Source: Laetmonice hystrix (Eukaryota). Taken from it: DNA of 64,000 nucleotides. Below the pieces are notes generated by a model. The model was not told the origin of the DNA. It ran no database searches and worked only from the letters and a program-made list of their open reading frames with translations. Position 1 is the stretch's first letter. Each line of letters begins with the position of its first letter. The translations under genes were made by a program, and so were the position numbers. Location of the stretch: contig OZ249436.1 in the NCBI GenBank assembly GCA_965235115.1, positions 31,994,001-32,058,000 on the forward strand, written 5' to 3'. Of the stretch, positions 1,015 through 58,647 are shown one piece after another.

Positions 1015-3200
1015 CTGCAAAGACAGAGAGACAGGAAATCAGCGTCAGGCGAACAGTCTGGTGTTCTACATCGCGATCTAACATTACCATTTACGGCTAC
1101 TGACATACACCTAGCAATATATTTCATTTTATGAAACGGCTCCAGGTCTTAATTTAGCCTGGCCTTTTTACGGCACTGCCAATAGTTTCCTTGTACGCGT
1201 TTCAAAGGTCGACTTAAGGCGATATCCTCCTTGTATTCACACCGCGTATGTATTAAAAGTTGAATCGGTGCTAGCCAAACGGGTGTTTAATGTGGTTAAC
1301 AGCTCACTTTCGCTCGTCCTTTTATTTATCACATCAAATGACATACTCTCTCTTCCTTGTCATGACAGATTCTACTTAAGACCACATCAAAGGAACAAGA
1401 ACAAGTACTTTGGCCATTTTAGCCAATATATGAGTAAGACCATTCATTCTCAGTTAGTGATACTCACAGTAGTCCACCTCATTACAACCCATCTTTTATC
1501 CGGAGACCATATATTATACTTTCTTAATTAAAGTCATGGAAATCACGTGAAAATATTAGAAGCGCAGCCTCAAACACGTGGCAATATATTAATGATATTT
1601 TCCAGCTTTGGTTAGATATGAGCTCTGTATGAATGCAGCGTAAGGGCTGTGAGGTAATATTGATGCATCCAAACTTTCCAGTTTGAGGCAAGAAATAAAA
1701 TTTTAGATAAAACTTGACTTCACATAGTTCACTTTTAACATGAACCTAAATCATAAAACTCCAGAGTGTTTCTAAGGCACGTTCACGGATTTCATAATTA
1801 AGGACATTTTAGACAATAATACACCTGCCCCATTGTCCTTGAGACTGGGGTTTGCAGGTGCCGCGTAGCTATAGATCCGCTTTTACCCACCGAATTAACA
1901 AAGCTGATGTTCATGTCCTTCCCCTAATCAGGCATAATGACGTCCTAAGAACCACTGTTTCCATTTTTATATCCACCAACATTTCGAACCGAAATCTCAT
2001 TAGCGACCCTCATTGAAAACACGTTTCAAGGACCTGGCATGTGACATGGCCACTAGCCGTCCAACTACTTGACATCGTTCAGTGGCACGCACAGTTCGGC
2101 CATCACCTATAGATGGGACATGTACGCATGACAAATGATGGGCTCGATTACTTCAGCCCAGCCACGCGCTCCAACAGGTTCAACGTTCGATTACACAGAA
2201 GAAGAGAAAAGGGGGGCAGTGCTCCATTCGCCATCATATACTCCCCCCAGCGCATGCCCACTAGCTCGAGCTGTATGATAGCAGCCATGGCCCAGCGGAC
2301 AACGCCGGGAGTAGTACAGACGAGACACTGGTACCGGCCAATTAGATGTCATCGGAGTTGTCAGGGGGGAAAGGGAGCACTATTAACTGAACGGCAAGGT
2401 CACAATCAGAAAGCAAGGCAGGATAGAGTTTAACGACAGGCTCTTGGATTGGTTGAAATGATGACGCTAAATGTTCTTGTATTGCTGATGAAAGCACCTG
2501 CCGATCGTCTTATAGCTGGTTGTTGACAAAATAGTTGGCCTTGCATTGACTTGAACAGCCACTGAAATTCGTCGGTTCATTGCCCGAAAAAATTTCACTG
2601 GCTGTCTCAATCAGTGTTTGGGCTGTCGCTGTTTAAACATCATGCCAAGCTACATTTTGGTGGAGACGGGCTAAATACAGTCCCTAAAAACTGGAACACA
2701 TTTTGAGCAATAAATCATGTTTTCATATCAAGTCTCTTAAGCACCCTCTGTATTAAATGACGTCAGGCTTCCAGGTGCAATGCCTGACAACTTCAACCGT
2801 TTCCAAGAAAAGTACTTCAACGTGCGTGCTTCCAGACCTTTAAATGATTTGATATCAGTATGGCAACCTAGACAACAGAGAACCTGGTTGTAGTGAAATA
2901 TTGTCACGGCGCAAACATTTCACGCACACTGGTGGCAGTTCCAAACAGCAATGAAATCGTTTAATGGCTCCAGGCTTTTTGCTAGCCAAGGCAATTAGTA
3001 CGGGCCTCAGGCCTACTTGGTGAATGGCACCACCTCAATTTTAAGTTCATACCCTTCCAGTAACCTGGACTAGCATTTGACATTGCTACCATATTAATGA
3101 ATGGAGATCATGGGTGGAGTCTAGGGACACATGAAGCGAGTTCATGCCTATTAGGGTTAATCCATCATTATATTATCATACAGTTGAAATACATTACCAG

Positions 3201-3465
3201 GGCCCGGTTTTTTTGTTTACTTTTCCACCGTGAGCAAGGGTGAGCTGAGCTGAGCAAGGGTGAGCAGAAGCTCATACTCACCGTTTTGCTCACTGTTTTC
3301 GTTTTTTTCAGGTGTTTTCCCGCGAGCTTGCTCACCATGAGCACGCCTCATGGAAAAAAGCAACCGCAAAAAGCACGAAAACGGTGAGAATGAGCTCATG
3401 CTCACCCTTGCTCAGCTCAGCTCACCCTTGCTCACGGTGGAAAAATAAACAAAAAAAAACGGGCC
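3201..3465. mobile_element. MITE with about 90-bp terminal inverted repeats (ggcccgg..., tgagcaagggtgagctgagc subrepeats), PIF/Harbinger-like
   Basis: Left arm ggcccggtttttttgtttacttttccaccgtgagcaagggtgagctgagctgagcaagggtgagca is the near reverse complement of the right arm. Flanked by CAG and CTG. Confidence 0.85.
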
Positions 3466-5708
3466 CTGTACTACATTTCAACAAGAATGGGACCCTTTAA
3501 CTTAGTGCTTCGTTATGCACTACCAACAGCAAATTACATTATGCTGCATAGCCTTCATTCCAACATTTTCTTTTCTAATAGAATACAGAATTCTAAGTGC
3601 ACTAAACATAAAATTATCAAATCTGCATGATACGCAGAAATTTGATATAGTTATTGAAAAGGGAGTTATTAAAAATCACTACACGCCGACACAAGTCAAT
3701 ATAGATACAAATTATGACACGAAAAGAAAAACTATGAAAGTTACAATGGTATTACTGTAGAAATCACTGGTACATATGAACCTTGCTCTCATATTTTACG
3801 CTTACTCGATATAGGCTCTGACAGTGATCTAAAAAATCCCCCGATCGATGCACCTATAGGGAACCGGTTTGAGTTTGTACCTAAGGAAGCGGCGAAACAA
3901 ACAAAAGCCTAAAATAACTTTAAAGTCAACTATTTGTGGAGTTGTAGATATTTAAAGTGTCATGTAGCCAAAAAGGCCTGAAACTGTGCCCCGATTTCAT
4001 ATACTACTCATCAGTAGTCTGTTCAAATACTTGAAAGTGGGATCATATCCGAAAGCCATTAACGAAATTAATATCTACAACTACATATTCACATTTATCC
4101 TTTCGTTATTCTTATGGCATATAAAAGGGTGCTTTAAATTCCTCTTCCAATCTAAACAATTTGTATTACAACAAAATTTTCCCAGTAAAAGTCAAATTTC
4201 GCCTTTTCCAGCTTTCTAATTCTTTCTGAGGAATAGACTTTATGAAATGATCAGTTTGCCATTTTGCATGAGAAATAATTTTAATATTTTTATTTTAATA
4301 TTGGTCACCTAATGATTTTTACACAGCCTTTCTTCTTTATCTTTTTCTTTCAAAATATAAAAGCATTAATGTACAATAAGCTCCAATGCTGTTCCTCCTA
4401 CTAAAATGTATTTTTGAGCTGTTCCGAGATGACCATATCAATTAAATTACCGGTATGTTGACCAAAAACTCTTTCCTGGAACGGCATGCATGGAGTACAC
4501 TAGCAAATTCCTGGAATGTCATGGTAGATACTCCCCACCCGGCGCTGCAGCTTTGCCTGCCGTTTGGACCAACTCCAACTGGAACTGGAACTAAAGCTGC
4601 TGGAATCTGTGTTAAATGGACTGTGTTCTGATCGCATTGAAAGTGAAACCAGATCCAGCGAGTACACGTAGACTACTGCAAGTGCATTAAGAAACCCTAA
4701 CATCCCCCATTAGAGTTCATTAGACGCCTCAGATTACATCGCCTCTTGAGGTTTTAAATGATCTTTCAAAATGTACGTTCCATCCTAATATACAGCAAAT
4801 GTAAATTTTCCATTAAATAATATGAGTGAACCTGAGCTCCACTTGCCTTAATTAACAGATAAGGTAACATGAGGTCAATCTTACGCATTTTTTCCAAAGG
4901 TTATTTCTACCGAGAGGATACATGAGAAATTTAATTGCACCCCCCCCCCCCCCCACACACACACCTTTCTTCGGGATTATGAGCATCAACAACCTTTAAA
5001 ATTTATTACCCAGAACAAACGATGAATCAAATCAGTTTGGATCTAGACGTGAAGCTAGAATCGACGAGACTAGATACTGGCTAGTCTGTTTCTCCTCCGT
5101 TCAGAACTGTCTGTCCTGAACACGTCATCACAGCTACAGCACCAGCAGTCGTTCCGCCAACACAGGACAGACTTGGGCTGTGGGAAAGCAGCCTGCATGC
5201 CTAGTGGTAATTTCGTCGCTACGTTGGTCGTACAACTGCAGACGGCGGCAGCGGTGGCCGAGTGGTCGTGCCCACGTCATCAACCAAACCTCTCCGCCCA
5301 GCATCCCTGATGAACAAGTCTGACCACCATCTGTCATTTTACACCAAGTGCCCAGTTTTTGTGGCCATCCTTTTTTTCTCAGAAGCAGCTCTGGTTGACA
5401 CAGCGAAGCTTAACACAAGAACGCTCCAGAAATAGACCTGTGATCAGTTGTTGGGGTGGGATGAGGTCAAGGGGTTATTTACAGTGGCCCTCCTCTAACC
5501 GGTGGGGTTGGGGCTGGCTGGCGGGAGCCGCATGCACCCCCACCCTCCCCACCCGTCCAACCCTCGCCTTATTGATCCAAGCCGTTTGGAAGAGTGGCCT
5601 GTGAAAGACGCTGCCCATAATGAAACTTGAATTTGTATAAAGCAGTCATGTCAACAACTGATACTAAACGTCTTGTCTGGTGTTGCTCGTTATTCATCGT
5701 CGGTGGAC

Positions 5709-6197
5709 ATCAGTTCTTGACGCCTGAACACCAATATCTTGGTCCTCTATAGACTAGAATTAGACCAGATAATAAAATAATCAGTTCTCGACGCCTGAAC
5801 ACCAATATCTTGGTCCTCTATAGACTAGAATTAGACCAGATACATTATCAGTTTGTTCCGTAATTTCTCACAAAAATAAAATAATCAGGTCTCGACGCCT
5901 GAACACCAATATCTTGGTCCTCTATAGACTAGAATTAGACCAGATACATTATCAGTTTATTCCGTAATTTCTCACAAAAATAAAATAATCAGTTCTCGAC
6001 GCCTGAACACCAATATCTTGGTCCTCTATAGACTAGAATTAGACCAGATACATTATCCGTTTATTCCGTAATTTCTCAAAAAAAAAAAAAAATCAGTTCT
6101 CGACGCCTGAACACCAATATCTTGGTCCTCTATAGACTAGAATTAGACCAGATACATTATCCGTTTATTCCGTAATTTCTCACAAAAATAAAATCAG
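5709..6197. repeat. 104-bp tandem repeat, 4 full copies plus a truncated first copy
   Basis: Unit tcagttctcgacgcctgaacaccaatatcttggtcctctatagactagaattagaccagata... recurs at 5781, 5885, 5989 and 6093. Confidence 0.95.
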
Positions 6198-12360: not shown

Positions 12361-14741
12361 TAATGGAACCGCCCATTGAGTTTCCATATTTTTAAACCTA
12401 TATTATATACCAGTTCGGTAACAAATACACTGTTCTCCCGACGGTGCATGCTGTCTCGTGCAGACGTGCTCCCGCCACAGGCCAAGGCCGACACTGACAC
12501 ATGGCAAGGACGCAGTCACTCGGGAACAATATTACATGACGGTTTGTCACGCTAAAAGGTCTCCGGATTACGGTGTAACTGTCACCACCCTTTACTCACG
12601 GCTCCCAGAAAGGCAGCGTAATGGCAGCAACATTCGGTGATTATGCGTCTAAACTGCACCATTACATTCGCTGACGATAGGTAATGTTCTTTAGAGGGAC
12701 CCGAGCAGTGACGTGCCCCGACATTCCGTGATCAGGCCAGGGCAATCCTACAAGTCCCCCTTCAACATTAAAATTGCAAGGCCCAGACAATTCATCCGTA
12801 ATACCCTGCAAGGCCATGATTTATTGTTTCTGTCTGCCATCGTTACCAGTGTCTGGTTACAGCAGTCTAAATCGGTCTGCTGGCTTATTCTGACAGGCCT
12901 GCCCACCACATTTCTCTCTCTTCCCCTACTGTCTCCTGCCACCACTTGCCTTCGTGGATCAATGACACCTGCTTACCCCCAAATACATATTCCTCTGTTT
13001 GAACCATGTGAAAACAGCATCTGCAATGGGAGGCAAGCCACAACCCTTCACTTAGCAGAATCACCTTGTCAGAGAATTATTAAACAATCATCAATCACCG
13101 CCAAGATGGGTTCCAACTGTGTCAGGATTTTCTTTTTCTGCACAAGAGCACTTTAGTTCAGATTGACTCGTATCCCGTCTCCTCTATATAGATTTACGCT
13201 AATTTCGGCAAAAGGAAATGGTTTTAAATTCCCATTTTCTAATGAGTGACACTTGATGCAGATGGATTTCTTAATGTAACTGACTGTAACCAGCGCATCC
13301 TTCATTATTGAAAGAGCAGCACATCCTTCAACCTGTGGTGTTCCCCTTAATCTCTGCGGTTTTCTTTATTGTTTCTCTGATGCATTGCATGTAGCTCAGC
13401 TACATGCAATTCCACCAGTCCAGTCTCGGTGCCGTTGCAAGGCCAGATTTTGAATTTGAGGAGTCACTGAAGAAGAAGCAGAATCTCAGTATCTTCGTCG
13501 TTGTCTCAATCTGTATGAAAGACTAAGTGTGAAAGTGAGACCAAGGCGGGGGAACCAGATGTATACAGCTGCGACTGCCACTGCCTGGGCTCCAGGACCA
13601 GCCAAGGGAGTTCAATATGGGCTATCTCCACCGTCACCCAACTTATCGGTACCGTGTAGGGGAATTGTTACGGAAGATGTCAAAACAAAGTCTGCCTCCA
13701 TCAGCTTCATGGATTTACATCCCATTCAGGGTCATTACAATGACAAGTCCATTTACTCGACTCTTGTAAATGAATTACAAATGCATTATAACTGTACAGC
13801 TTCAAATATTGGATTAAGTTTTTTTTCTTCTCTGACTAGACGTTGCACACACAGATGTGGATACCGGGAAAAGCAGGCAACGTAACAATTTCTAGGCACC
13901 GGGAAATCATATTGATACAATGTGTTTTGCCTCTTCTTGTGTCCTAACAAGAAAAGCTTTAAATGTTAAAAGATTAGGGTGTCCAGGAAAACCGTTTAAA
14001 GTTTTTTTTTCACCTTCCATAAACAACGCCACATGATATTTCTACCCTCTAATTTCCACATTTTTAAAACAACATCGTAGGCACACTCTACTTCTCTAGT
14101 ACGACAAACATGTCCGAGACTTGGCTGACTGGCCCAGCATCCAGGTATGATGGAATCCTTCAGTAAACCTTCACTCCCTCCCAGACTCATCCATTAAATT
14201 ATACACGGGACCTCAGCCTATTCTATATTATGCAAAGCCATGGTTTATCGGGCTGATTTCTCCCGTTACCACCAATAATAGATCAAAGTCGGAGATAAGT
14301 GTTGGTTGGTGGGATGTGATGGGTGGTGGTCGCCTGCCCCTCGCATTTCTGACGCTTATAGTGGTAGAGTAGGGAGATTGGTGATGATGGGGGTGTGGTG
14401 GTGGTGAGGGGGGGGGGGGCAAACTGCCATACCAACCAACGTCATCAGCCTGGGATCCACCGGATCCAATGCAGACACCATTCAATCAGGCCAGCAGCAG
14501 CACGGCCACTGCTTATAATCACGGCAGCCAAACGCACTTCTCAACAATTTCGCACTTCACCGAAATTACTTTCATTCCTGTATGTACACAACAGAAAGGC
14601 ACCATAGCTCATCATATACCAAAGCCTCTTTCGTAATTAACATGCTGTCATAAAACAAAAAGTTTACGAAAATTACTCAATACACCCATTAATCTCTCTC
14701 CCGTCGACTTTTGATTCTTCCTAATATTCTTCTGGGACCAG

Positions 14742-14906
14742 GGCCCGGTTTCAGAAAGGTTAGCATGATCTTAAGGCTCTGCTTAGCCTTTTAGGACCCC
14801 TGATTGGCTGGTCCTCTGCTGCTCAGCTTCATCCAGCCAATCAGGGGTCCTAAAAGGCTAAGCAGAGCTTAAATTAAGATCATGCTAACCTTTCTGAAAC
14901 CGGGCC
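14742..14906. mobile_element. Near-perfect palindromic MITE, 165 bp, CAG target-site duplication (Harbinger-like)
   Basis: About 70-bp arms ggcccggtttcagaaaggttagcatgatcttaa...tgattggctgg and their reverse complement. CAG on both sides. Confidence 0.92.
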
Positions 14907-16768
14907 CAGGGACCAAGACTACCATATTAGATAACATTACGACTTCGGACTCGACCCAATGCAACGCCGGAGGAATGAAGAACTCCTGAAAGGTGTAGGA
15001 CGTCAAGAACTGCTGAGTTTGCCGTAAATTACAACTTGCTGAGACGGCTTCCTGGCCGGGCCGCCAGCGAGCAGTGGAGACCACTCGTGTTGAGGTCCTG
15101 GCAGAGTGTGACAAGGAGAGATCCATTCCATGGCGAGGTGTAAGCGACATGACAGGTGCTCTTTGTGCCAGCTGACATCTCCTGGCAGCACGGAGACCTC
15201 GGCTTGGTTCTCCACCACTCGGGGAGGAGCATCAATCACATCAATACACACCCACTCCCAACACTACCACGACATCGGGCCCAGTGTCACACCATTCCCC
15301 ACCCACAGCGTCACAATGGCGCATTTTCTTATACAGGTTCCGGATTAAAGTTCACAACACCATTCTGCCCTGAACACACACCAACATGGGAGCATAGGTG
15401 CATTTCAAAGCTCAATCTTAGCTGTACGATATTGCTATGGTTAAAACCTCCAGCTGATATGGGGAAAACGGTCACACCAACCATTAATTGTCATGCGACA
15501 TTTATGTAGACACAACGGAATACCAACGACAGTGGGTCATGCCAGCTACGCATACTGTTCGTACCGCCAGCAGTCAGAAATCTGATAACCGTAGACCATA
15601 ACTTAGGTTTGGAGTACGACTCCTCCAATAAATCAACTACCGGACTCTATGGCCGGCTAGATGCATCCCGTCTACAACAGGACCCCAATGCCTCACCGTA
15701 CACTTTTTTCTTCCCAAGGGGGGAGGGGTAACAATACGCTACCTATACTTATGAAAATAGAACTTGTGCTTTTTAGACGCCTAGGTTCTTTTACCGACTT
15801 GAATAAAAGGACGCTGGTACATCCCTCTATTTCAATAAAAGATCAGTCAAAAATCTCCCTTTCTATCCACCCCCACCCTACCCATGCACAATAAGTTGGA
15901 ACACACATGAAAACCTGTCCTCGTCTTTCTTCCCGCTTGAGCCTCAGCGCAGAACCATCAAGGAATCTGCTGATAATCTGTGATTAATTCTACAATTTGG
16001 CATGCCTTAGTTATTTCTAGGACACGTAGAACTGTTCTCCATCTTTGGTTTGTAAGAAAACCTAATAATTACCACTGGAACACCATGTCATTAACGGCTA
16101 TCCGTCTTCAAAACCCTGATTATACAACAGGTACCAAGGACTAATTTAAGGAATGCGCGAAGGAAAGGCATAACGCTACAATTTCTTGATTCCTTCTACG
16201 ATGATGCGGACAAGTGGGGTTTGTTTTCTTTAAAAATTATATAGATCTAGTTTTTGTGGAAGGTACCTGTCCGAATAACCATGTCCCCATCTTATCAAAT
16301 CCACTGTAGCTTCTAATTACTAACATGTTCATTGTGTAATTACATGTATAAGGATAACAAATTACAAATACTCTCCATCCGATATAAAGGGATCTATTCT
16401 AATTACTGAAACACTTGTGACGATTGCCAACCTTGGTTAATTTTCTATCATGAGTGTCCATCCCAACCGAGGGTGGCCATGGTATAGGACAGCCATGGTA
16501 TAAGACGGCTATGGTATTGGACCTTTTGTTTCTGACCACCTCAAGTTCTGGGAGGTTGTGATAGAACGGTGATGGGGCAGCGACCACCGACCGGGGGACG
16601 GGGGTTAACTCCGGTTCTCTCCGCCAACAAGTCGCCCAGTGGGACGGTCTGGCAAGGAACATACAGCCGCTTATAATACAAACCACCTTCAAGCAGGGGC
16701 TGGGGTTAGGTGCGGTCAGGTGGGATCCGGTGATAGGGTGGTGCAAACAAGACAGAACTAAGAAAGCT

Positions 16769-17135
16769 GTGAGTGTGAGTGAATTGGAGGTTTTATGCCC
16801 TCTCGGCAGTATTCCAGCCATATTGAAGGCGATATGAACCATATAATTCAGTCAAGCAACCTATTGTAGGGGAGTCATGATGAGGATGAAGTGAGATAGA
16901 AACCTGCCACTGGGAGGCAATCCCCTATTCTTTTCGAAAAATGGCAAGGGTTCTTTATATATCCTCAATCGCAGAGACACGGCTGGACAACGCCTTTGAT
17001 GACCCAGTAGCGGAGCACTGGGGAGGTCCAGTGAGGAAAATGGTATTGGAAGGATCCAAATCTACCTGTGCCACGCAGCTGATTTTACAATCCGACAAGT
17101 TTTGAACCTGTGTCTCGACTGGAGGTGCTAGCATG
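16769..17135 (-). mobile_element. Decayed tRNA-derived SINE with a Nin/Deu-type central domain and a (cact)-like tail
   Basis: The minus strand shows a B-box-like ggttcaaaac. The core ccagtgctccgctactgggtcatcaaaggc...atataaagaacccttgccatttttcgaaaagaatagggg...gtggcaggtttc and the tail atatggctggaatactgccgagagggcataaaacctccaattcactcacactcac resemble molluscan/lophotrochozoan SINEs (recalled, not searched). Confidence 0.7.
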
Positions 17136-17515
17136 CATGTATGTATATCCAAACATCATCTCGGAGGATGGACACTTTTCTGGTGGTGGAACAAATGATT
17201 ACAAAATAATGAAATTGACACGTTGCTGGGACTGGGACAAACCTATTACCTGGAATGTTGTTCTAAATAAATTGCAGAGTTATTTTCAGGTTACCCTGGA
17301 GTAACCCATAGGGTTGACCCCATAGTTACACTAACAGAAATCCCATGGTTACACTAACAGAATATGTGATAAAGAGCTCATGTTAACTTCACTCTGACTT
17401 TACTCTGACTATTCTTCATTAACTGTAGGATTCAGTCTGACAGCTTCAACTGAACGGCTTCATTGCCTGCACGCACCATGCACGGTGTGAGACTTTCCGA
17501 CGTGACGCAACTGAC

Positions 17516-17600
17516 CTTTACTGGATGTCGTTCACAAAAGTACGTTACTCACCTGAAAATAGAAACAGAAACAGTCAATTACATAAGTCATGTGCCCACT
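17516..17600 (-). other. Candidate recursive splice site (junction 17553|17552) with a 37-nt cryptic exon (17552-17516)
   Basis: Sense strand reads aattgactgtttctgtttctattttcag|GTGAGTaacgt. Downstream donors are AAG|GTCAGT (17515) and ATG|GTGCGT (17476). Confidence 0.7.
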
Positions 17601-20600
17601 CTGCTTCGCAATGAAACATAAAGGAGATTACTGATGAAATAACACTATTCGCTCTCTTTGGTACATAAAAATAATATTTTCATTTAAGTTGGTAGAATTT
17701 GTGTAGCTGACAGAACGATAATCTGCCCACTGCTTATACTATTCCTTTCCCCCAGCATATTCTATTTTAATAACTCAATTTAAGCCCATCTGGGTTACAG
17801 CCCAAATTACGGTTTCAACATGTTTTCGCATACTGGAGGGACCTTGGACAAAGCTTGAGGGTGGCCTGTCTATTTATATCTCCCTATTATCCTAACTTGG
17901 AGATTGGATCAATTATCCTAATTGTCCATCGCTCAGCCATCTGGCTCACTGGTTGCCAGTCAGCATTGGTCAAAATCTCTTGTGATCACATATTTATACG
18001 CTTTCCTGCCAAACACGTTTTGGAAAATGTGAGGAAAAATGAGATACTTTGGTGTTATCTTGAGTCATTATTTTGGTGAATGGAATTGTTACTAATGATA
18101 ACGGTGAGTGATGCAAGGACTAATCATTTCATACGTTTTGTTGTGGTTAGTGTTATTTACGCTTTTCGTAACGGTTTACCGACCATCTAGCTTAGCCTCG
18201 TCTGAGTGGACGGAACTGGATCACTCACACAGAGACACCTGACTGATCGCTTCTGTCTCATCTCACTGAATCTGAGGCGAGGAGACAACGTTGTATCTTA
18301 AAGGTATGAAAATTTCATTTCAACAAATTCCTCCAAACAGCCAACGTATTCGCCGTTAGGTTCATGAATACGTTAATATTATATTTTAGAGATGCCGCAA
18401 TTTTGAGAAAAAATAAACTTAATCTTTTTTTTTTTTTTTTTTTGGGGGGGGGGGGGGTTGACGGATATAATAAGGACAATGACTAAGTACATAGTGCTAC
18501 ATTATCCACTTCTTTCTCCCAGATTCAAAAGCCGAAAATAACCTAATGCATGCAACATACATGTATATATTTAAACTCCCCTTCCCTCAGCGACCTTGGT
18601 ACGGTGACGTGTAACTATCGTCCTTAGTCGGTCCCAGGGATTCTGTTAGGACTACCAGCGAGGTGTATTTCGTGCGACAATCTGCTGGAAAAACGTCAAT
18701 CTCCCGAACACCCTGTCTAAACTGATCAGGCAGTCTCCAGCTCTCAGAGTGCGTCAGGTCACCGTCCATCAAACACACACACACAAGGTTATAATACATG
18801 GCCCTGTGTCAACATCTCTGGCCGTACAAACATGCGACGCAATCTTGTCGCGTTTGATGGAGGCCATTGTGGTATTACAGGAAGAGCCAAAAGCCACTGC
18901 ATGCATTTAATTTCGCAGGGCCACTGTTGGCTAAGTGGCGCTAAAGCTGCTGAATGGGCACCTGCCGGTGCCAGGCGGAGTGCACCATCAAATCCCCGGG
19001 CCCCAGTGGCCACGGCTGAGGGCTGACCACTAGGGAAACGTTACAGCCCCATGACGACGACAACTCGTTACCTGTGTCTGCTGAGGCAGCACTTGGGGCC
19101 TGCTAATGATGAAACGGACAACTTCCAATTAAACGATTTCTTGTCAGACATACTGTCAGGCAATCGGCTCATTAGGCAGCGAGCATGTGGGTCTTCTCGA
19201 AGGGTCATGCCCAAGTGTGGGTCTAATCGCCTTTCGTTGCCCTGCTCTGGACACCTAAAACTCACTCACTTTAACTCCTCAACTCACGATCAAGGTCAAA
19301 ACCCAATAAGAGCCCGGCCTTTAATGACATTTTGCCAGTTTCACGAATCTATAACCTTCAAGCACTTATGATTCTTACTCGACGTTACTAGATCTACTTG
19401 TACCAACGGGGTCGAATGGTTTTGTCAGACTTCAACTAATTAACAGTTATAAAACCTGAACGTGTCAACGTAAGCCAGAAATTCTACATTGAACATGACA
19501 GTAGGCCCCATATAGTATAAAAGTCCATTTTCTAAAGATGTTCCGGGGGAAAATGCTGGTTGTAAAGCTATAAGGTTAACTTCATGGACCAAAGCCTCTC
19601 GTTATGTCCATGCTTAATCCTTTCACTTAACTTGCAGAGATCGGATTTAATGCGATTCTTCAACCCGAATGGACAATTTAAGAGACCCCTTGGTTGTACT
19701 CATAATTACGATGTCATTCAGCCAAACAAGGCTTACGAAGTATTCTATAACAAGACTCTTTATACGGCAACATCAAGACCTGATGGTGATACTGACCACT
19801 GGTTCCCTCAACATGAACATAATTCAGCCGTATATTTAAGGCTCCTACTTTTGTAACATTCAATAAAGGTTTAAACACCCCATCAAAGGATTGCTCTTTT
19901 AAAAAGGGGAAGGGCGTTTTTCGTCCAGAATATAGAACATAATTGAGATGGTATTTTAAAACTGATTGCCTCTCTAGTTTACAAAATATTGATGAAGCAA
20001 CACATTAAGTTGAAACGCATGTACACGCCGTGCAGTCAGTTATCTTAATTGTATATCTTAGCGATGGAAATAGAGTCGATTACTGCTACAGCACAGTATT
20101 GTCAAAGTTTTAGACAAGCGCAGATTCATTTCAACACTTTAACAAGCTGATCGAAAGATATGCTGGCCCTTTTCACCTATGTCACCAACATTTTCAACCT
20201 ACCATCTCCACAAGTCATGCAGGATTTCAAAATGTTTCACATATAACATACAGGATCCTCATAAGACAAAATACCACATAGATCGAGTTTTCCTAAACCG
20301 ATACTTTGTACGTTTTGCTGTATTCACATTCAATACTGGGGCAGTAGAACCTCGTAGTATATAATTCTTACGACGCTGATTTCTTTAAGACCCAGCGTCG
20401 TGTTCTGCTCGCCTTCCATCTCGTTGTTCTGCACGTACTTTGCATAAATCTGCTGACTAAGAGCGGGACGCGATGCCTCCACAAAATCCTACCCGATCCC
20501 TGCTAAATGTTCATATTTCTAATACTTTCAGCGAGAGGCAAATGGCAGCGACCTGAGACAAGGAAATGGGACATATCAAGTTATATGTGGTTGCCTTTTT

Positions 20601-20899
20601 TTCTGCGATTGTGAATCAAACTTAACTCCGACTCATTATATTATATACATGTACCTGTGGTTAAAGTCGTCAAGCACCGACCTATCAAGTGACACTGATC
20701 AGTGCATACAGCGGTTTGACGTCTGCTCACGTGAACTGTAACTAAAGGCCCGAGTCCGCACGCTACTTTATGACCGACTTCATGACTGTCTACACACTCG
20801 TTACCACCGACCGTTGTCTGTTAAAGGTTCCCGTCTTATTTTCTTCATGCATCAAGGACTCCCCTAACAAAGATACGGGCCTTGGCGGCGCTTCTCCAC

Positions 20900-21035
20900 C
20901 AGAGGCCAAGTTTTTCCAAACTTATCTTCTTGGTTAAGCTCAGGATCAACGCTTCTGATTGGCTGGTCTGCAGGAACCAGCTAATCAGAAGCGTTAAGTC
21001 TTAAGTTTAAGCGAGTTTTGAAAAACTGGTCCCTG
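20900..21035. mobile_element. Degenerate palindromic MITE related to 14742-14906
   Basis: Core aacgcttctgattggctgg...ccagctaatcagaagcgtt, imperfect ggccaagtttttc/gaaaaactggtcc ends, CAG/CTG flanks. Confidence 0.7.
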
Positions 21036-21144
21036 TTGTATTTCGTAACACAACGTCCCTGGAATCCGATCATCTTAGCATGTCCGGTGGAACACCATCG
21101 AACACCAGATGCTCAATTTAGTCCTACACTACAGTGTAAAAAGT

Positions 21145-21175
<31 letters not shown>

Positions 21176-23853
21176 GGTCTGCGAGTCTGGATCAACATAC
21201 GCGACCACAGCGCCATCTTTTTCTTCAACTGTCTGTATCAGCTAGTAACCAAATTTTCCCCACGCCATCGTATGTATTCATGCTGGCCAGTCTCTTTTTT
21301 CTTCACAGGACTTCACGTGCTATCCCATAGCACTAGGTACCCGGAACCACATCTTATATCAACTATTCAATATTGGCATAATTACCCTTTATATTAACTG
21401 CGCCGTAAATGTAAGCCTGTCGTAAGCAAGTATGAATTCCCAACTGGAGAACACCTGAGCACCATTGGCACTGCGAAGTTTGGAAAGGTCAGGCCAAACT
21501 GCAGCTACCAATACCACCTTAACAATTCATCATATTCCTTGGCTTGTTTTTTGGCACATCCTAAGCTAAATTCATGACACAGTGTTCTCATAACGAAGCT
21601 AATGTTTCCTCTTGGAAGATTTTAAACAGGCACTTCCTGAAGGCCAAATTTGCTTTTCTCTGGCAAAACTTGTAATTGGCAGTGTAGGAGGCATGCAATC
21701 ATGTTACTCTATCTCCAAAATAGTCTTCATTGATGTAAATTTAATAAGTAAACAGTCTAAACAAGCTGATTTGAGGCACTGAATCAAAGTGGAAAATGTC
21801 AATTTCCTGCAGTAGGAGTCCTGAATATGGACTCCATGTGTCCTGGTATGCCCCTTGCAATGCTATCTGATATACTTTACATCCCCCTCTACACGAACTG
21901 CATGAGCTCATATTGTCAAACTGTCACTGCTCCCCTCCACATCTGATTGGACCGACCGTCTGCAGCCGTCGGCGCCAGTGTTTACGTTTATATCAAGAAA
22001 AGCGCACAATATCATTTAATACCTTGTCCTGGACTCCCTCCTCCAAAATCCAGGGTCTTTTCCCGTATAAACTTAAACGGGGACGTTTCTCGCAATATTT
22101 AATTAGCAGCTGTCGAACATGGCCTCGGTTAAATGTACCTTGTTTCAGTTTATGTTTTAACCATGCAGCTACAAAAACGTGTTTTGAAGCCTTACCATTC
22201 TGTGATGCACTGAAGTGCTTTAAATAGTCCAACAGTAAACAACTATAACATCTATAAATATCTCGATATTTATTTTATGTGACCTGTCACTACCTTTGCC
22301 TCAAGATACATTTAATACTTGTGTCATTTATTATACTTTGCAGCCTCAGATTCAATGAGCGGTTTTACAAAAGTACAACTTTAAAATAGCAATATTTTAT
22401 CTCCTAATTATAAATAAAGAACGAAATGGAGCTCCAAAAATGTTAACGATGTGAAACTTAAAAATCCGAAATAATACTTCCCCTTCGCCTAAATCCTGCA
22501 CTGTCTTCACTACTGGCACATTGATTGTAATGATGGTAATATTGTTGATGACAACACGAACTCCACACCCAGTGGGGATAGGAACGCAGAAATAAGCGAC
22601 CATTTTTTGGCCATTGCAAGCTGTCTTTTATTCATTTATAATTACCGCACACCCCAAGCCATGGCGCTGTGCTGTGATTATGCCCGCCTTTCTGTCGGCG
22701 GCGCTGTCAGCCAACCTCAACCAGTGAAACCGTGCCTCCCCCTTCCTCGTCTTTCTCCCATGTCTCCTGCGACGCCGACAATGGTGAGACGTGGCTGGAG
22801 GAGGCGTCGTCGTCCCGCCAGCATCCATCTGCCAATATCTCATTCTTAACCTCAGACAATGACAACTAATCAGGCAACAGGCTCGCCGCCACAATCATAA
22901 GTGTGGTCCGCCGCGCAATACCTGCGATATCTTGACAAGAACAGGTAGTGTACTAATTTCGGGACAATGTCAGACTGCCTGTTGGCATTGGCCATCTCCT
23001 GTTCAGATTTATCCAGCGGAGTGGGCTGGAAGGAATTAGCTTATTCATGAACGGAGGAAAACGTCGCTGTAACGAGCACAGGCTAGCGTTACAAAATACG
23101 GAGAGGTAGTCTGCAGAAAGATTTGGACTGACTCGAGCAGTGAGATGATTGGCGAGATGTGGCTAAATGTCTGTCTCGCCCCTGTCCCTTTGTTTAGAAT
23201 GAAGAATATCATCCCTAAAAATAATGATTTCATCAATAAATAGGGGGTTTCCCCACTCTGTTTGCTTCTATTATCTAAGTGAAAATGTATGGCAATGATA
23301 AATTGTATGCATAGTGATGATACTTTCTGGCTCCGCCACACAAAGAAGAGAACCTTATATCCAATCAAATATATCTGAACTATATCAGAAAGCATCTTTC
23401 TATTGTATCTCAGAAATATGACTTCAAAATCGACAGCACCCACAGTGCTGGAAAAAAATGCCTACCGTTTTTACGTTAGGCTACACTCACAAAAAATGAG
23501 ATTTCACAAAGAATTTCAACATTAAATTTTGTTTTTGACTATATCTTTGCGTCCCTTTTTCGACAACCGTCAAAACCTGGGTATTGCATCGAGTTTCATA
23601 GGCCAGGGTTGGGGGGGGGGGGGAAACGAATGATACCGATATTTTAGACCCCGTCATCACATCTTATACTGCTGCCTGCTGCAGCTGGCTGATCCAATCA
23701 GTAAGCTTGTAACAACCAGCCATCAGGCGAACCTTCACGCTAATGGTTCCGCTGCCTCAGGTACGTGATCTGAGGGCAATTCGGCCACTCTTCCTCGGCC
23801 TCGCATCACGGGTCTCCCAAGTATCACCCAGAATGCCTGTCACGACAATCGAA

Positions 23854-24095
23854 CTGCCCTTATTCTAACATCATTCAAACTGCATCCTTTTGGCTGCCCT
23901 TATTTTAACGTCATTCAAACTGCATTCTTTTGGCTGCCCTTATTCTAACGTCATTCAAAATGCATCCTTTTGGCTGCCCTTATTCTAACGTCATTCAAAC
24001 GGCATCCTTTTGGCTGCCCTTATTTTAACATCATTCAAACTGCATCATTTTGGCTGCCCTTATTCTAACATCATTCAAACTGCATCCCTTTGGCT
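23854..24095. repeat. 40-bp minisatellite, about 6 copies
   Basis: Unit ctgcccttattctaacatcattcaaactgcatccttttgg. Confidence 0.95.
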
Positions 24096-24494
24096 ATCGC
24101 TTCTGTTGTGAGGTAAGGTCGAAACCTTGATAATGTCCACACACAAAATAAAAAAAGAAATAAAATTCAAGCGCTGCTTTAGAGTCTTGGCCATGGAAAA
24201 CGACAGGGACCAAGGCAACACTGTCTCTTCTTGAACATCTTACAAATCACTGAGGGAAAACAGGTCGTATGTTGATAAACATCTAGCCTTATTACGTTCC
24301 AAAAAAACCGCGACGAAACCACTGATACGGTGGCCCCACCAGGTGTGCCGACAGAATGTGCCTGACGGGGCGAGAAACCAATTAAAGCAAGGCTTCTGGC
24401 GTCGTGTTGGAGCCGACAATCGGCTTCCACTTCCCCGCTACCTTCTAATGACACATGTCTTCTAACTTACAATCAGACCGTCAGACATTATATT

Positions 24495-24815
24495 ATAGGG
24501 TGGGCATAACAAAAATTGTCGAACTTCGACGTCAAATATTTCAAAAACCATACGTCACAAGCTTCTGAGAGGTTATAGGCGTAAATACCTTGATGTTCCT
24601 AACATTTCTTGACATTTCCAAAATGATATGTCAAAAATAGTCCCTCCATGAGATCAAGTTGAACCAGGTAGGACGTTATTACAACTAAATCAGGAACAAC
24701 ATTTTTGAGACACAATTTTAATTTAATTCACATCTAAGGACAATGTGAGATATCAACATGAATATTTCAACAGATGTTTAGCACACGAGGTTTTTTTAAA
24801 TGTCCACCCGATATA
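24495..24815. mobile_element. Possible decayed Tc1/mariner-type MITE
   Basis: Ends tatagggtgggcat and atgtccacccgatata are imperfect inverted repeats with TA flanks. Confidence 0.35.
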
Positions 24816-26001
24816 AGAACTTCTTCTTCAAGTACACACGTTGGTCTATGTCGGTGTAATTAGGATTTGTAGACCCAGACGTAAAATAATTATAAGGGAA
24901 AGAAAAAGATAGGGGCATACATGTTGTTTGTAGGTTTAATGTCTCGGTGGCTCAGGATGACATGCCATCAGTTTAGAATTGGGCCAGCCTCGGCCTGCGT
25001 GCGGACGTCGTGACTTATTACTGTCTTCAGACTAGAGACAGAGAAACACCAGCCGCCACAACCGTGCCTTTTTGGTCGTGCAAGATTAATTTTACAACGT
25101 ACAAATCTTGGAATTCTGATCTTTGCAAACGTAGACAGAGCAAAAGAACCCATCATAACTAAACAAGAAAAATCGTCACAAGCACCGACCAACAAGAATG
25201 CAGTGACGGGTATGATTTTTGTCAATGTTACTTTATTTCAGATTCTTTCATGCCGTCTGTGAGCACTGCTGTGAAGCGAACCTTTTGCTATCATTGAGCA
25301 CCGACAAACAAAGATGGAATTACCGACGCTATTTTTCACGAGAAATCACTACTTTATTTCATTGGCAATGCCTTGGGGCCCTTCCAAATATGGGAACGCG
25401 CTTCTCAGATTGTGTGCCATTCTAAATGTTGATGTTCAGGCGAGCAGGCGAGCAAGATTTAAATAATTTCAAGAATGATAGGATGCAGTCAGCTTTTTGT
25501 GAAGGTTATTGCAGAAAATCTACGCTTTGAGAGAAATCGACTCGTTTTAATGTTTACCCTCTGCTGTTACAGCATATATGTGGAGGAGACTTCTCTCAGG
25601 CAAAGAACAGAATTAACCTCAACTCTTTCCTTTGACCCCTTCAGGAAATACTGCGAAAATTGGACAATCCCTTTTATCCGGACAAAAACCTTTAAACCTT
25701 TTAAATGAGATTTGTCTAATTTAATTTGTCCACACGCAATATTTTGCCCCTTTCTCTGTACTGAAAGGTCAGTTTCCCATGTAGTTAGATCGGTCCCCAC
25801 ACGGGGGTGCCACTGACACATTTTGGTCTATTTATAGGTCGAGGATCAATGGCATTCGAAATGCAAAATCAGAGGTCAGTTGAACTGGAGGCCTGAGAGC
25901 ATTCCCACTTGTTCCAACAGGTATAACAGTCAGTCCTATAGATTTCTTGGAGTAACACCCAAGGTACGACACAAGACGGTAGACCAGAAACAACGATTCG
26001 T

Positions 26002-26250
26002 GTTCTTGAGCTGTGAACTTCCATGGTTCTTGAGATGTGAACTTCCATGGTTACTGAGTTATGAACGTCCATGGTTACTGAGCTGTGAACGTCCATGGTT
26101 CTTGAGCTGTGAACTTCCATGGTTACTGTGCTGCGAACTTCCATGGTTACTGAGCAGTAAACTTCCATGGTTGCTGAACTGTAAACTTCCATAGTTACTG
26201 CGCTGTAAACTTCCATGCTTACTGAGCTGTGATCTTCTATGGTTACTGAG
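26002..26250. repeat. 24-bp minisatellite, about 10 copies
   Basis: Unit gagctgtgaacttccatggttact. It explains the 8-aa periodic ORFs on both strands. Confidence 0.95.
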
Positions 26251-29200
26251 AAGCCAGAGACTCCAGGTTTCAAAACTTTAATACCATGAGAAGACATGGA
26301 TCTAATTTTTTAAATAGTTCAAACAATCTTAACAAATGCGTTTTAAGATTGTAAACTATAAGATAATTATTAATTTTCCTAAACTTATCTCTAACGGTGA
26401 TGCTTTAAATCAATTCTAAATACCATGAGTACGAAATGCCAACGTGCATAAAACCTTCATAAGATTATTTTGACATGACGATATAATAATTCATATGAAA
26501 ATCAATCGAAACCATGGGACACTGCAGTTGCTATTTTCGTCCTGTGGACGGCGGTCTCAGCTCATACAAATCAAGGCCTAGGGGGCCATCGTGTGTCTGT
26601 GCCACTGTGAATCAGATGACAACCCATCTCAATTCACATAAAGATGACGAAGGTTGAGTAAACTACATGGTTTATTCTCGTGTTCTGCTTCCCGCAGTCG
26701 GTGATCTCCGACCGCCGCCGGCACCGTGGGGAGCAGGAGGAGGGGAAGGAACAGGAGGAGCGGGAGCAGGAGGAGGAGCAGCAGCAGCATCCATCACTGC
26801 CGTCGTCCTGCCGGCTCGCCGAGCTCGGTCCGCCTGTGACAGTTCTAGGCCGGAGCTCGCCGCCAATAAGACGGATCACACACCGGTCCCAATCACACTA
26901 CATGTACAGCTAGACACCCGGCTCCACGACGACGACGGCGACTAAAGACAACGACAACGACGTATCTCTCCGAGAGCCCTCCCGATCTAATACTCATCCC
27001 TATGATGGAGAAACTTGCCAATCCCTCATCCTCCGTTCATCAGAAATCTCAAGGTCTCATCTTTCAATGTTTATGGGAACACACTGAGAAAAAACAGACA
27101 AGTTGACACACATCCCGCATTTAGGAAAATCTCAAGAAAACAGTCCCTGCTGTCTTCAATCCCCTCAGAAAAAATACTCTCCTTCGGTCAACAAGGGTCT
27201 GTGTTAGCTATCTAAATGTTCCCGATTCAGTAAAGCTGCCATGAGTTATCATCAACTGTTTTATGTGACCGCGATTATTTACACCAGCATTAGGTTATTT
27301 ACATCTATCACGCCATATTTGCTCTTCAGTCTATTTGTATTGAATTTGTCATGTCTACTCTGATATCTTTGTCTGAAAGTTATCCTTAAACTTACAATAA
27401 TAACAATATATAAATCCTTGTCTTTATTATGGTACACAAATTTATGTACACCTCCATCCAAGTCATATTTTACTATACCAGATATAAAGTATGGGTAATT
27501 TTGGTCATCAAACGTCAGTCCAAGTTATTCTGAGTTAACTATACGTGTACTTTAAGATTCCTAATTTAGAATGTCCCTACTTTATGTAGTTACTCTTGAC
27601 GGAGGCAGCAAACCTTCTTCCTCGGGTTCCATCTTATTGTGTTACTTTCAAAATGACCCGGTGTTTGGCGATCTTTGCGGTCCCTTCATCATGGACCTGT
27701 ATTACTCCCAGTGCAGCTGGGTGCAGCTCATCTCACCCGTACATCTCTTCCTACCATCTTTCTGATTTGAGAAGTCAAAGGTATGGTGATGAAGTGCTTA
27801 CAGGGACTTACTACACGATGATTCCAAGAACTGAGGTTCCTTTTCCTATCGACCAAAATTTACGTTTATATTACCAGACTACACATACCTTTCTTATCAT
27901 TGATGCCCATAATGATAACGATTCTACTACTGAGGGGCAAAGTCACTATCATTAATTATACAAGTGATAGATCTTCAGGGTGAACAAACTGATATTGAGA
28001 GGTGTTTCCCAAAAAATGACCCTACTTGAGACTAATTACACTAAGACAGAAACCCCAGTAATTGCTCAGGCGTTGTACTTTAGTTTGTATATTCGTGGAG
28101 CACACCTACACGTAAAACAAATTTGTGCACGATACAGGCACAAACATGTATGACTTGGTGATCATTTTAAAGATTACGGGCAATCGGACCTGCATCAGAA
28201 AAACGTCCCTCATCTTCAAAATAACATCCTCCATGGTACAAAGAATGTTTGAGCCAATTTGTATGCCTGCAGCATGACTTGCGCCTTTTTTCTTGTTAAA
28301 TTCTAACTCTAACCTGTTAAGTTTACAAAATAAGACAGTTCTTAGACAGGGCTAACATGACACTAAGAGGAGACTCGAACGAGGGTATCATATCCTGAGC
28401 CAAATTTATCAGAAGTAACTTGACTAGGCCAGCAGGTGTTTACACACAAAAAACTACCAGACCCACACGCTAGGACGAAATGGGCAAAACACGCTCGAAA
28501 CGAACATTCGTTCAAAACTGACACCATTGACATCAACCATGGGAGGCCACAGTTGGCTTTGACGCCTCAATGGATTCAACGCTTGTGAATGTTTCATGTT
28601 GTCACAGCAACAGTAGGCCACTACTAAAGGATGCGGTAAGCACAGGATAAACAGCTTTCTCTCTCTCTCTCGCTCAGGGTCGCACAATTGCAGTGATTAT
28701 TTGCTTAAGGGAGAAAGCTATGTATGCAGAGTGCATACACTAAAAAAAATTTGAGGAAAGGACCTTTCATTGTATTGGTATTTCCATAAAATTGATAACT
28801 TTGAGGAATTTACTGATATGATCCAAAATCTCGACACAGTTATGATGATACTGATGTCTAGACGTTTTCCAGCTATCTTTCTCCCTTACAAAGGGCACGT
28901 AACTACCAAGCTGTATCAATATTATTATCAACGCGAATATGGACTGTGTGGAACAAAATAGAAGATTCCACTCGGAGAAGCCACAAACAAACCTGACCAA
29001 ATATATGACAACCAGGAGTACGGGTATTAGCACTAGCAACACCTACTAACTGACCCAGATGTGTAAACCCTGTATCGACCCATAAATATGCTTCTGATGA
29101 TGATCCCCGCAGTAAAATCAATACATCTAACATGACGGCAAAACCGATTACGTCCCTGTTTATATATTACTCACGCAACAAAGATTCCTTTCATGAGAGA

Positions 29201-31988: not shown

Positions 31989-32017
31989 ATCTTCAATCAT
32001 ATAGGCCTATTACTTAC

Positions 32018-32115
32018 CACAAAACTGAGACTCGGCTTTCTTTGCATCGAATAAAATAAACGTCACTCACCTGAAAGATAAAAGAAATTATCACAAATAA
32101 GATATGGTTAAAGTG
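32018..32115 (-). other. Candidate recursive splice site (junction 32071|32070) with a 53-nt cryptic exon (32070-32018)
   Basis: Sense strand reads ctttaac (branch-like)...ttatttgtgataatttcttttatctttcag|GTGAGTgacgt. Downstream donor GTG|GTAAGT at 32017. Confidence 0.75.
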
Positions 32116-32376: not shown

Positions 32377-32786
32377 ATACTGTTGCTATATTATGTGGGA
32401 CAGACAGACCCAATTCGAATCATCAATATACTGTTGCTATATTATTTGGGACAGACAGACCCAATTGGAATCATCAATATACTGTTGCTATATTATTTGG
32501 GACAGACAGACCCAATTCGAATCATCAATATACTGTTGCTATATTATGTGGGACAGACAGACCCAATTGGAATCATCAATATACTGTTGCTATATTATTT
32601 GGGACAGACAGACCCAATTCGAATCATCAATATACTGTTGCTATATTATTTGGGACAGACAGACCCAATTCGAATCATCAATATACTGTTGCTATATTAT
32701 TGGGGACAGACAGACCCAATTCGAATCATCAATATACTGTTGCTACATTATGTGGGACAAACAGACCCAACTCGAATCATCAATAC
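32377..32786. repeat. 51-bp minisatellite, about 8 copies
   Basis: Unit atactgttgctatattatttgggacagacagacccaattcgaatcatcaat. Confidence 0.96.
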
Positions 32787-33581
32787 ACAGACAGACCCGC
32801 TTCGAATCATCAACTGCTGCGGTTGAGGATACTACATGTCAGTATATTGTACAGACGCCACCAGTGCCATTTAATATGCTTCTGCCCTCAATGTTTTTTT
32901 TGGCATTTTTATTCTACCTGTCTGGATGTTGGGGTTAATGTGATTGGGTGGTAGGAAGACGCTAAAAAACAATTCTTTTTACACCCTAATATTCCGACTC
33001 ACACACATGTATACATAATACAAACATAATGCAAATGGGTATACCGTTGTCAATTAGGTTAACAGCTTTACATACTCCAATAACTAGGTTCACTTACTAC
33101 ATGAGGATTTACGCTACCAGAAAAATATCTGATTGACCTGTAAGTTCCACTACACTGTCCAGAGCTGGAACTTTACAAACTGCAAATGCAAAAAGTGTCT
33201 TGTCCAGCTCTAACGGATACTTTGGATATTTTATTTTCTAAACAAGATTTTCAGAACAATGAATGTGTTTTTTTACAATTTGCTCCTAAATATGCAAGCG
33301 ACCGTCACCAGGGAAATACGGTTCTGTTCTCATAATAATTTCCTTATCAAAAGGCTATTATGAGAGAAATGCTTGCATTTTACACCTTTATGGGTTAAAT
33401 TGGATAAAGACAATCTTTCATGATACTTTTGTAAGAAAATGTGAAAATGTGTATTTTAAAGCAGAGTTTTGTAAGAAAATGTAAAAATGTGTATTTCTAA
33501 ATATTTGCTGCATTGTGTAATACAATTATGCCATCAAAACTGAACGGCAAGCAAAGATGAAGGTACCCCTAAAAATTACTT

Positions 33582-37685: not shown

Positions 37686-38078
37686 ACACACCCCAGTCTA
37701 ACAGTATCCCTCCATACACAGCGCACACCCAGCCCAGTCTAACAGTATCCCTCAATACAGGACACACCCACCCCAGTCTAACAGTATCCCTCAACATACA
37801 GGACACACACACCCCAGTCTAACAGTATCCATCAACACACAGGGCACCAGCCCCGCTCTAACAGTATCCCTCAACATACAGGGTGCACTCACCCCAGTCT
37901 GACAGTATCCCTCAACATACAGAACACAGTCACACCCACCCCAGTCTAAAAGTATCCCTCAACACAGCGCACACCCAACCCACCCAAACAGTATCCCTGA
38001 ACACACAGGACACGCCCAACCCAGTCTAACAGTATCCCTGAACACACAGGACACACCCACCCCCGTCCAACAGTATCT
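37686..38078. repeat. 40-45-bp minisatellite, about 9-10 diverged copies
   Basis: Core accccagtctaacagtatccctcaaca with variable CA-rich spacers. Confidence 0.93.
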
Positions 38079-42711: not shown

Positions 42712-42713
<2 letters not shown>

Positions 42714-53874: not shown

Positions 53875-53897
53875 GCCGCCGCCGCCGCCGCCGCCGC

Positions 53898-53952
<55 letters not shown>
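53875..53952. repeat. (GCC)8(GCT)18 triplet repeat; CAG/CGG-type on the sense strand
   Basis: Read directly from the sequence. Confidence 0.97.
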
Positions 53953-57496: not shown

Positions 57497-58062
57497 CAGG
57501 GGATGGCTGATTCGTGTTGCCCGTCAAGCCCTGTAGTTTTCGCATTACGGAAAACACGAACAGAACCGTGGAATGTGGGACTTTGGTGCAGTCTGCATGG
57601 CAAAGGAGAATTTTTCCTTTTTCTGTGCACTTTTGTGAAACTTCAATTGATTTTACTTGTTTGTGATATGTCTTGGTCGTCGGTCATGTTTGGAACCATT
57701 ACTTATATACAAGAAGTATACAAGAAAGCTGACAGCCCTTAATTAATATCAAGCAGGAACAGTAGATTGCATTAAGTTTATGCAAAATGGATTTTTTTTT
57801 ATTTCTAAACAGAATTCCCCCCAAAACAGGAGTAAAACAGAATTTAGCAGAATTTGGAATCTTTGGAAAGTATACAGAAATTGGCAAAAGATAATGCATA
57901 GACTGCGGGGCCCGACGCCCTGGGCAACTTGACAGAATGGTCAGCCTAGTCCAACAGACTAAAGACAATAGCCCGTTTGCTAACTAGTGCTCTGACCCAA
58001 CATTGACTTGTAGTCCACCTGTCCTGTGGCAAGTGATTGGTTTGAAATATCGGCCACCCCTG
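57497..58062. mobile_element. Possible decayed hAT-like non-autonomous element
   Basis: Imperfect TIRs caggggatggctgat and atcggccacccctg. No target-site duplication is recognisable. Confidence 0.4.
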
Positions 58063-58647
58063 AACTGGAATGTCATTTAACAACATTCTCGGGTGGATAA
58101 CGTTAACTTAGTTTTGCCTCACCACACACATACATGGAATGTCATTCAGTCGAATATCTGACACGGACCAGAGTGGTCCACCATTGGAAAACCGGGAAGG
58201 TTAAGTCCTGTAATAATTTCAAATTACATCCAAATGAACATCATAAATCAGAGTGCAGACACCGTTTTCTTGAGACTTGTTCTTTTAAATGTCCCATTGG
58301 GTTATCAAGGGTTTGATGTATTACACTACCGGCCTGGGCTATTTAAAACAAAACAACCCACCACTTTGTCTTCTTGAGAAGAGCAGGACATCTTGTCTTG
58401 GACTGAATAAACTTGTCATGATAAAGTGCCTTCTTTCAAGATGGCCAATAGATCTATGTCCACAAGATGTGAAAAAAGTGATCACTCACTCTTTCAAAGT
58501 TTTAGTACTTAGCCATGTATAAACCATTTTACAAAAGGTAAACCCTGGATCAACACTTTCACCCACGACCAAGAAACTGTACACTTCAAACTGAGTTCTG
58601 CCGGTTTTGTAAAAATTCTCAAGGTACTGGTCAAAGCAAGAACTTAC

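Follow-up and report, generated by a model that had tools for sequence, protein, structure and literature searches.

The DNA analyzed here is a 64,000-nucleotide (nt) stretch of the Laetmonice hystrix genome (GenBank assembly GCA_965235115.1, contig OZ249436.1, forward-strand positions 31,994,001 to 32,058,000; G000:C1:31994001-32058000 in our numbering), called the window below; positions refer to it unless a contig is named. On its minus strand lie exons 1–5 of a gene that we take, from the exon translations, to be CaMKII, and this report concerns its third intron, which carries two candidate recursive splice (RS) sites, RS1 and RS2. Coding exon 1 (60598..60662; MASLTTTAKFSDLYDLKEELG...) was recognized by its translation and its donor AA/GTAAGT (slashes mark splice junctions), exon 2 (60074..60168) is one of two short exons of the putative gene that gave weak Pfam matches to Pkinase (E 0.005 for exon 2), and exon 3 (58648..58707) ends in TAG in phase 1; these letters make up the exonic part of each regenerated donor described below. 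Exon 4 (960..1014) starts at 1014, and exon 5 occupies 554..619. Because exons 1 and 2 were located within the window, the designation intron 3 is right. This intron (1015..58647, minus strand) measures 57,633 nt, in agreement with the 57.6 kb given in an earlier note on the stretch; it begins at the exon 3 donor ATAG/GTAAGT and ends in ...ctttgcag before exon 4, whose branch point is expected around 1039-1045. Later CaMKII exons were found in 100 kb fetched downstream. The other located introns of the gene are ~14 kb or less and contained no ratchet-like motif of the kind described below.

At two positions in intron 3, both read on the minus strand, an acceptor directly abuts a consensus donor. 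The RS1 acceptor (32071..32110) comprises a branch-like CTTTAAC with its A at 32108 (-38; weaker candidates at -21 and -18), a T-rich tract with pyrimidines at 13/15 positions, an AG-free zone of 77 nt and a terminal TTTCAG, followed at once by the donor GTGAGT (32065..32070), the junction reading ...tttcttttatctttcag/GTGAGTGA. The RS2 acceptor (17553..17580) has a branch-like AATTGAC with its A at 17575 (-23), a T-rich tract that is likewise 13/15 pyrimidines, an AG-free zone of 44 nt and TTTCAG, followed by GTGAGT (17547..17552), the junction reading ...gtttctgtttctattttcag/GTGAGTAA. Joined to exon 3, either site regenerates TAG/GTGAGT, which scored 10.6 bits. The earlier note had picked out both junctions by eye (32071/32070 and 17553/17552), with the same branch-like motifs (that of RS2 near 17575), tracts, AG-free zones, abutting donors and regenerated TAG/GTGAGT, and had given the resulting pieces as 26.6, 14.5 and 16.5 kb; all of this was reproduced, the predicted segments measuring 26,577, 14,518 and 16,538 nt.

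New relative to that note is a second donor a short distance downstream of each site, which closes a small cryptic exon (RS-exon). RS-exon 1 (53 nt, 32018..32070) ends at GTG/GTAAGT (32012..32017; +53, 9.7 bits) and RS-exon 2 (37 nt, 17516..17552) at AAG/GTCAGT (17510..17515; +37, 8.4 bits), with another donor at +76 (7.1 bits). Both sites thus have a donor scoring 8 bits or more within +30..80, and such a donor occurs in 3.3% of the 50-nt windows of intron 3. The regenerated donor outscored both RS-exon donors, at RS1 by a small margin in an approximate matrix. Read after exon 3, either RS-exon encodes Gly-Glu-stop, with the stop at codon 3, and their lengths shift the frame in both cases.

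The motif YAG/GTRAGT occurred twice on the sense strand of intron 3, at RS1 and RS2 only, and not once on the antisense strand, while the looser YAG/GTRAG occurred three times and once, respectively. Among 1,939 sense YAGs, RS1 and RS2 belong to the 7 that have both a tract of at least 13/15 pyrimidines and an AG-free zone of at least 40 nt. With independence assumed, the probability of finding two or more such acceptors directly abutting GTRAGT was 1e-5 at strict and 2e-4 at moderate thresholds, these acceptor thresholds having been chosen after RS1 and RS2 were seen. A more cautious estimate comes from other strands and regions, where 910,367 bases contained no strict motif; it bounds this probability only to <0.016. 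GTRAGT as such was found 38 times on the sense and 8 times on the antisense strand of intron 3 (1015-58647); strong full-donor windows were about equally frequent by strand (3.3% vs 3.5%), as was AATAAA (36 vs 40). The neighborhoods of both sites are single-copy in the genome, which rules out an origin in repeats. Three contig sets that behave as genomic DNA (X1-X3, from one sample of one study), compared with 13000-32900, show scattered single-letter differences from the window; a search for RNA matching 23000-32900 listed none, which counts neither for nor against use of the sites. The contig sets gave collinear pieces between 13000 and 29584, one of them crossing RS2 (17152-18388), and among the matches listed none spans the whole interval.

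Three weaker positions were considered and rejected. The site at 47865 has GTATGC, with a regenerated donor of 7.0 vs 10.6 bits and no donor of at least 5 bits before +130. The site at 43577 has GTGGGA (6.8 bits), a poor tract and no branch-like motif. The suggestion in the earlier note of a third site at 43578 or 47866, giving four pieces, was dropped on account of these weak donors and missing features. A further TAG/GTAAGC at 31805, 265 nt past RS1, lacks a branch-like motif and has no donor of at least 5 bits before +108.

In flies, ratchet points head cryptic exons of ~50 nt that have to be recognized and are then skipped, because the donor downstream loses to the regenerated one (PMC8605326, PMC6224609). 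Weakening of the ratchet donor in fly kuz and Bx reportedly leads to inclusion of the RS-exon. At the level of sequence, the CaMKII feature is real and non-random, and everything that marks a ratchet point was found at both sites: an acceptor directly abutting a donor, occurrence on the sense strand only in a long intron, a second donor within ~100 nt, and a regenerated donor stronger than that second one. We give a probability of roughly 80% to RS1 and RS2 being intronic ratchet points of the Drosophila type. The two recursive sites of the earlier note are therefore well supported at the level of sequence, on firmer grounds than it gave, without the four-piece version; the stepwise removal that it proposed stays an inference. 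Use of the sites in RNA and their conservation across species are likewise presumed.

By analogy with the systems just cited, passage of the polymerase through RS1 would allow the 53-nt cryptic exon to be defined by its acceptor and its downstream donor, exon 3 would be spliced to 32070, and a 26.6-kb lariat would be released. The junction would regenerate TAG/GTGAGT, at 10.6 bits against 9.7 and 8.4 for the cryptic donors, and because the regenerated donor outscores the cryptic one, the cryptic exon would leave with the next 14.5-kb piece. Exon 3 would then be re-spliced to 17552 and, in the same manner, to exon 4 (16.5 kb), and the mature mRNA would have a plain exon 3-exon 4 junction with no trace of the steps. 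If a cryptic donor won, translation would meet the stop at RS-exon codon 3, with degradation of the transcript the probable outcome. Given that stop, the RS-exons are presumably absent from mature mRNA.

The layout was also scanned for genome-wide, in the 627-Mb, 35-contig assembly. Y10-N-CAG/GTRAGT was found 49 times over 2 hexamers vs 59 times over 8 control hexamers (24.5 vs 7.4 per hexamer, p 2e-9), and GTRATG followed Y10-N-CAG 19 times. For downstream donors, the first 30 of 50 TTTTCAGGTGAGT matches and 30 of 59 control matches were analyzed; L032, L083 and L100 (near-duplicates of other matches) and L084 (CaMKII RS2 itself) were dropped before counts were made. Donors scoring 8 bits or more lay at +30..80 in 14/29 strict matches of the GTAAGT set and 3/30 of the control set, with 4-5% in background windows. 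The matrix, threshold and window were fixed before the GTGAGT set was analyzed as validation, and a downstream donor was present in 6/17 (p 1e-4 to 2e-4); L113 and L116, already in set B, were left out of the validation set and retained in the pooled 48. Pooled, the strict matches gave 20/48 vs 3/30 in controls (Fisher p 0.002), with RS-exon lengths of 35-79 nt (median 51 nt), in line with the ~50 nt of flies (PMC8605326). A matrix-free donor pattern was present in 18/48 matches and 1/30 controls; divided by tract, it was found in 17/33 T-rich and 1/15 C-rich matches and in 0/12 T-rich controls, so that the signal lies in T-rich tracts. Were the matches due to chance or to ordinary exon ends, no second donor would be expected at a fixed distance. 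Those without a strong second donor may be chance matches, exon starts or sites with weaker donors. Same-strand motif pairs 28-70 kb apart were seen on C3 (twice), C8 and C30, as expected for multi-site introns.

A second gene with the layout is an ephrin gene (Pfam PF00812), whose 119,041-nt first intron (minus strand, G000:C11:18269114-18388154; L161-L173) holds four strict sense-strand sites, at 18356730, 18334989, 18311232 and 18294373, one of them the index match by which the region was ascertained. The segments that they delimit measure 31.4, 21.7, 23.8, 16.9 and 25.3 kb. Downstream of every one of the four sites, between +31 and +55, there is a donor-like motif (5.2-10.5 bits), and no strict site was found on the opposite strand of 140 kb. 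A putative signal-peptide exon was found at C11:18388255 on a 40-kb extension. The ephrin intron is a cleaner test case than CaMKII. From these sequence patterns, long introns elsewhere in the genome appear to use this layout too. We lean, with some hesitation, toward fly-like ratchet points genome-wide that use ~50-nt RS-exons to cut long introns, CaMKII intron 3 and the ephrin intron among them, in steps of 15-30 kb; they would number tens at strict thresholds and, roughly extrapolated, perhaps low hundreds overall.

The best surviving alternative, which we nevertheless regard as unlikely, is that the units of 53 and 37 nt serve chiefly as poison (or micro) exons under regulation, whose downstream donor wins in some tissues, the codon-3 stop lowering CaMKII mRNA through nonsense-mediated decay and stepwise removal being a side effect or absent. 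Both units do have the sequence of poison exons, being complete exons with good downstream donors that add a premature stop if included; in both, the frame shift comes with an immediate in-frame stop that GTGAGT in phase 1 does not force (chance ~0.04, calculated by hand), and CaMKII is alternatively spliced elsewhere, if its duplicated exon 6 (below) is a guide. However, an ordinary poison exon needs no perfect donor at its start, and both units have one, the regenerated donor outscoring the one downstream; a single ephrin intron shows this layout four times; and such exons are normally skipped in flies (PMC8605326). A poison function would not exclude use of the sites as ratchet points.

Less probable still are chance juxtapositions, without function, in a long AT-rich intron. 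The thresholds were set once the sites were seen, GTRAGT is common on the sense strand (38 vs 8), the empirical bound goes only to P<0.016, and C-rich and some T-rich genomic matches resemble background. Against chance, both sites combine four independent features, namely a branch-like motif, a tract together with its AG-free zone, a perfect donor and a second donor at a fly-like distance, and the genome-wide excess, the pre-fixed validation and the ephrin ladder point the same way. It is very improbable that the GTGAGT motifs are ordinary donors of alternative first or non-coding exons from internal promoters, which could in principle splice to exon 4, or that a nested or trans-spliced transcript uses the acceptors: the upstream sequence, with its branch-like motif, its T tract and 44-77 nt free of AG, resembles the end of an intron, internal first exons predict no second donor ~50 nt downstream, and intron 3 yielded neither a second copy of exons 2-5 nor a convincing coding open reading frame (ORF). 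The 8 ORFs of at least 150 amino acids in the window look repeat-derived or featureless, as judged by inspection without a family search.

Several points weigh against interpretation of the sites as ratchet points, in CaMKII or genome-wide. All the evidence is DNA sequence, the donor matrix was approximate and not trained on Laetmonice hystrix, and the first CaMKII segment would still be 26.6 kb, vs a fly mean of 9.1 kb (PMC6110457). In the genome-wide counts, the +30..80 window was picked after the first set was seen and the matrix-free pattern was written after all sets were seen; 28/48 strict matches have no strong downstream donor, and a looser TTTTCAG/GTGAGT set has one in just 5/27. The motif can also begin an apparently coding exon: L082 and L083 (G000:C1:15934599 and 15962320) are near-identical copies of an acceptor plus GTGAGT that continue as an open frame, which by eye resembles, we presume, aldehyde dehydrogenase. 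A coding exon that begins with a perfect donor is a possible expressed RS-exon.

The strand test adds to these points. Non-index motifs were counted by strand in 4 of 10 planned 100-kb regions, which leaves the test underpowered. Relaxed motifs gave 6 on the same strand vs 1 on the opposite strand (one-sided p ~0.06, by hand); strict motifs gave 3 vs 0, all three from the ephrin region, the other 3/4 regions containing no further strict site. For the index-site regions on C2 and C1, no Pfam match was obtained among 18 candidate exons and no host gene was found. A strong ratchet-like site on C6 lies ~13 kb upstream of same-strand MORC exons, to which it may or may not belong. Sense and antisense GTRAGT in site flanks numbered 32 and 32, 36 and 16, and 33 and 26 (control, 55 and 36), and neither GTRAGT nor AATAAA showed a consistent strand asymmetry in the flanks. 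The C6 region (G000:C6:12476001-12516000, minus strand; L151-L154) holds, compactly and on one strand, a cryptochrome/photolyase-like gene, ribosomal protein L13 and the MORC gene.

Elsewhere in the CaMKII gene, exon 6 is present as two tandem homologous copies, HCIQQILEGV... and HCMQQILESV..., ~100 nt apart (L011), at ~5370-5440 and 5540-5615 bases beyond window position 1 on the minus strand; the copies are probably mutually exclusive. In mouse and human, CaMKII-delta has mutually exclusive exons 6A/6B (PMC12060085). Given that pair, the duplication may be ancient or convergent. Upstream of CaMKII, ~19-28 kb beyond window position 64000 on the minus strand, are exons (L002-L003) that, by a sequence motif, may encode an annexin. 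Minisatellite arrays in the window occupy 30257-31038 (period 164), 32377-32785 (51), 31818-31988 (84), 5771-6194 (104), 23854-24095 (40), 26007-26250 (24) and 37689-38077 (41). RS1 lies between the 51- and 84-bp arrays, which come within ~300 nt of it on the upstream side and 80 nt on the downstream side, but neither RS1 nor its cryptic exon is disrupted by them. Interspersed repeats lie at ~29560-30260 and at 14330-14990, 16320-17300 and 30930-31590, and summed contig depth reaches ~600,000 at 29600-30263 vs ~30-70 in unique sequence.

The mitochondrial contig carries nad3, trnS1, nad2, cox1, trnN and cox2 in that order on one strand, which is the common annelid mitochondrial order. One mitochondrial gene order, presumably this one, dominates annelids (110/149 species; PMC10405356). 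The arrangement is consistent with the earlier note's placement of the organism among spiralians and makes it a probable annelid.

Drosophila ratchet points were reportedly described by Burnette in 2005, Duff in 2015 and Joseph in 2018, and Sibley is said to have described, in 2015, vertebrate recursive splice sites with RS-exons. The mechanism itself is known, and what would be new is its occurrence in a lineage for which no report was found. The Laetmonice sites share with Drosophila ratchet points (Ubx, kuz, Bx, Ten-m; PMC8605326, PMC6110457) an acceptor abutting a consensus donor in a long intron on the sense strand only, a second donor at <100 nt that closes a ~50-nt out-of-frame cryptic exon, a ratchet donor stronger than the cryptic donor, and several sites per intron (two in kuz). 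They differ in phylum (a probable annelid), in segments of 14-31 kb vs the fly mean of 9.1 kb (PMC6110457), and in being known here from DNA alone. With vertebrate RS sites (PMC6224609, PMC6110456, PMC8797253) they share a presumed exon-definition mechanism with donor competition, long introns and a AGGTAAGT-like motif with a pyrimidine tract; in vertebrates, however, the fully skipped sites number ~10 and long introns are not enriched in bulk (ratio <=1.5, PMC2773006), whereas at least tens of strict sites are found here, a more fly-like picture. Skipped intronic sites number 197 in flies vs 10 in vertebrates, a difference of about twentyfold that has been linked to repression by the exon junction complex (PMC6224609).

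Enrichment of ratchet-point sequences in large introns was found in fly, mosquito, bee, beetle and sea urchin, with ratios of 4 to >20, and not in vertebrates (PMC2773006, Table 2). That survey, like ours, took a strand-biased excess of the motif as evidence; it differs in including no spiralian and in making no use of a downstream cryptic donor. Given its insect and sea urchin results, ratchet points are therefore to be expected in Laetmonice hystrix. CaMKII and Ephrin had no match in the searched fly supplement tables of PMC6110457, a weak check in which gene naming was left unverified. Among the searched tables of PMC6110456, the 36,870 rows of putative sites include human CAMK2 and EFNA5 and the detected-site tables do not, and Camk and Efna are not mentioned in the main text of PMC8797253. 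No report of recursive splicing in CaMKII or in any spiralian (annelid or mollusc) was found in literature covered at abstract level; the Duff 2015 and Joseph 2018 site lists, bioRxiv supplements and papers behind subscriptions lie outside that coverage and may bear on the point.

Experiments have demonstrated recursive splicing in flies and vertebrates, but the comparisons considered here include no member of Spiralia, the third major branch of the bilaterians. If an annelid has a fly-like layout, this would polarize the difference between flies and vertebrates, and the sites give exact nucleotides for a cheap reverse-transcription PCR test in a plasticity gene (CaMKII) and an axon-guidance gene (ephrin). 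If the genome-wide interpretation is true, abundant cryptic-exon recursive splicing would be ancestral to protostomes at least, vertebrates would have reduced it, and the two stop-bearing CaMKII RS-exons could also switch kinase level.

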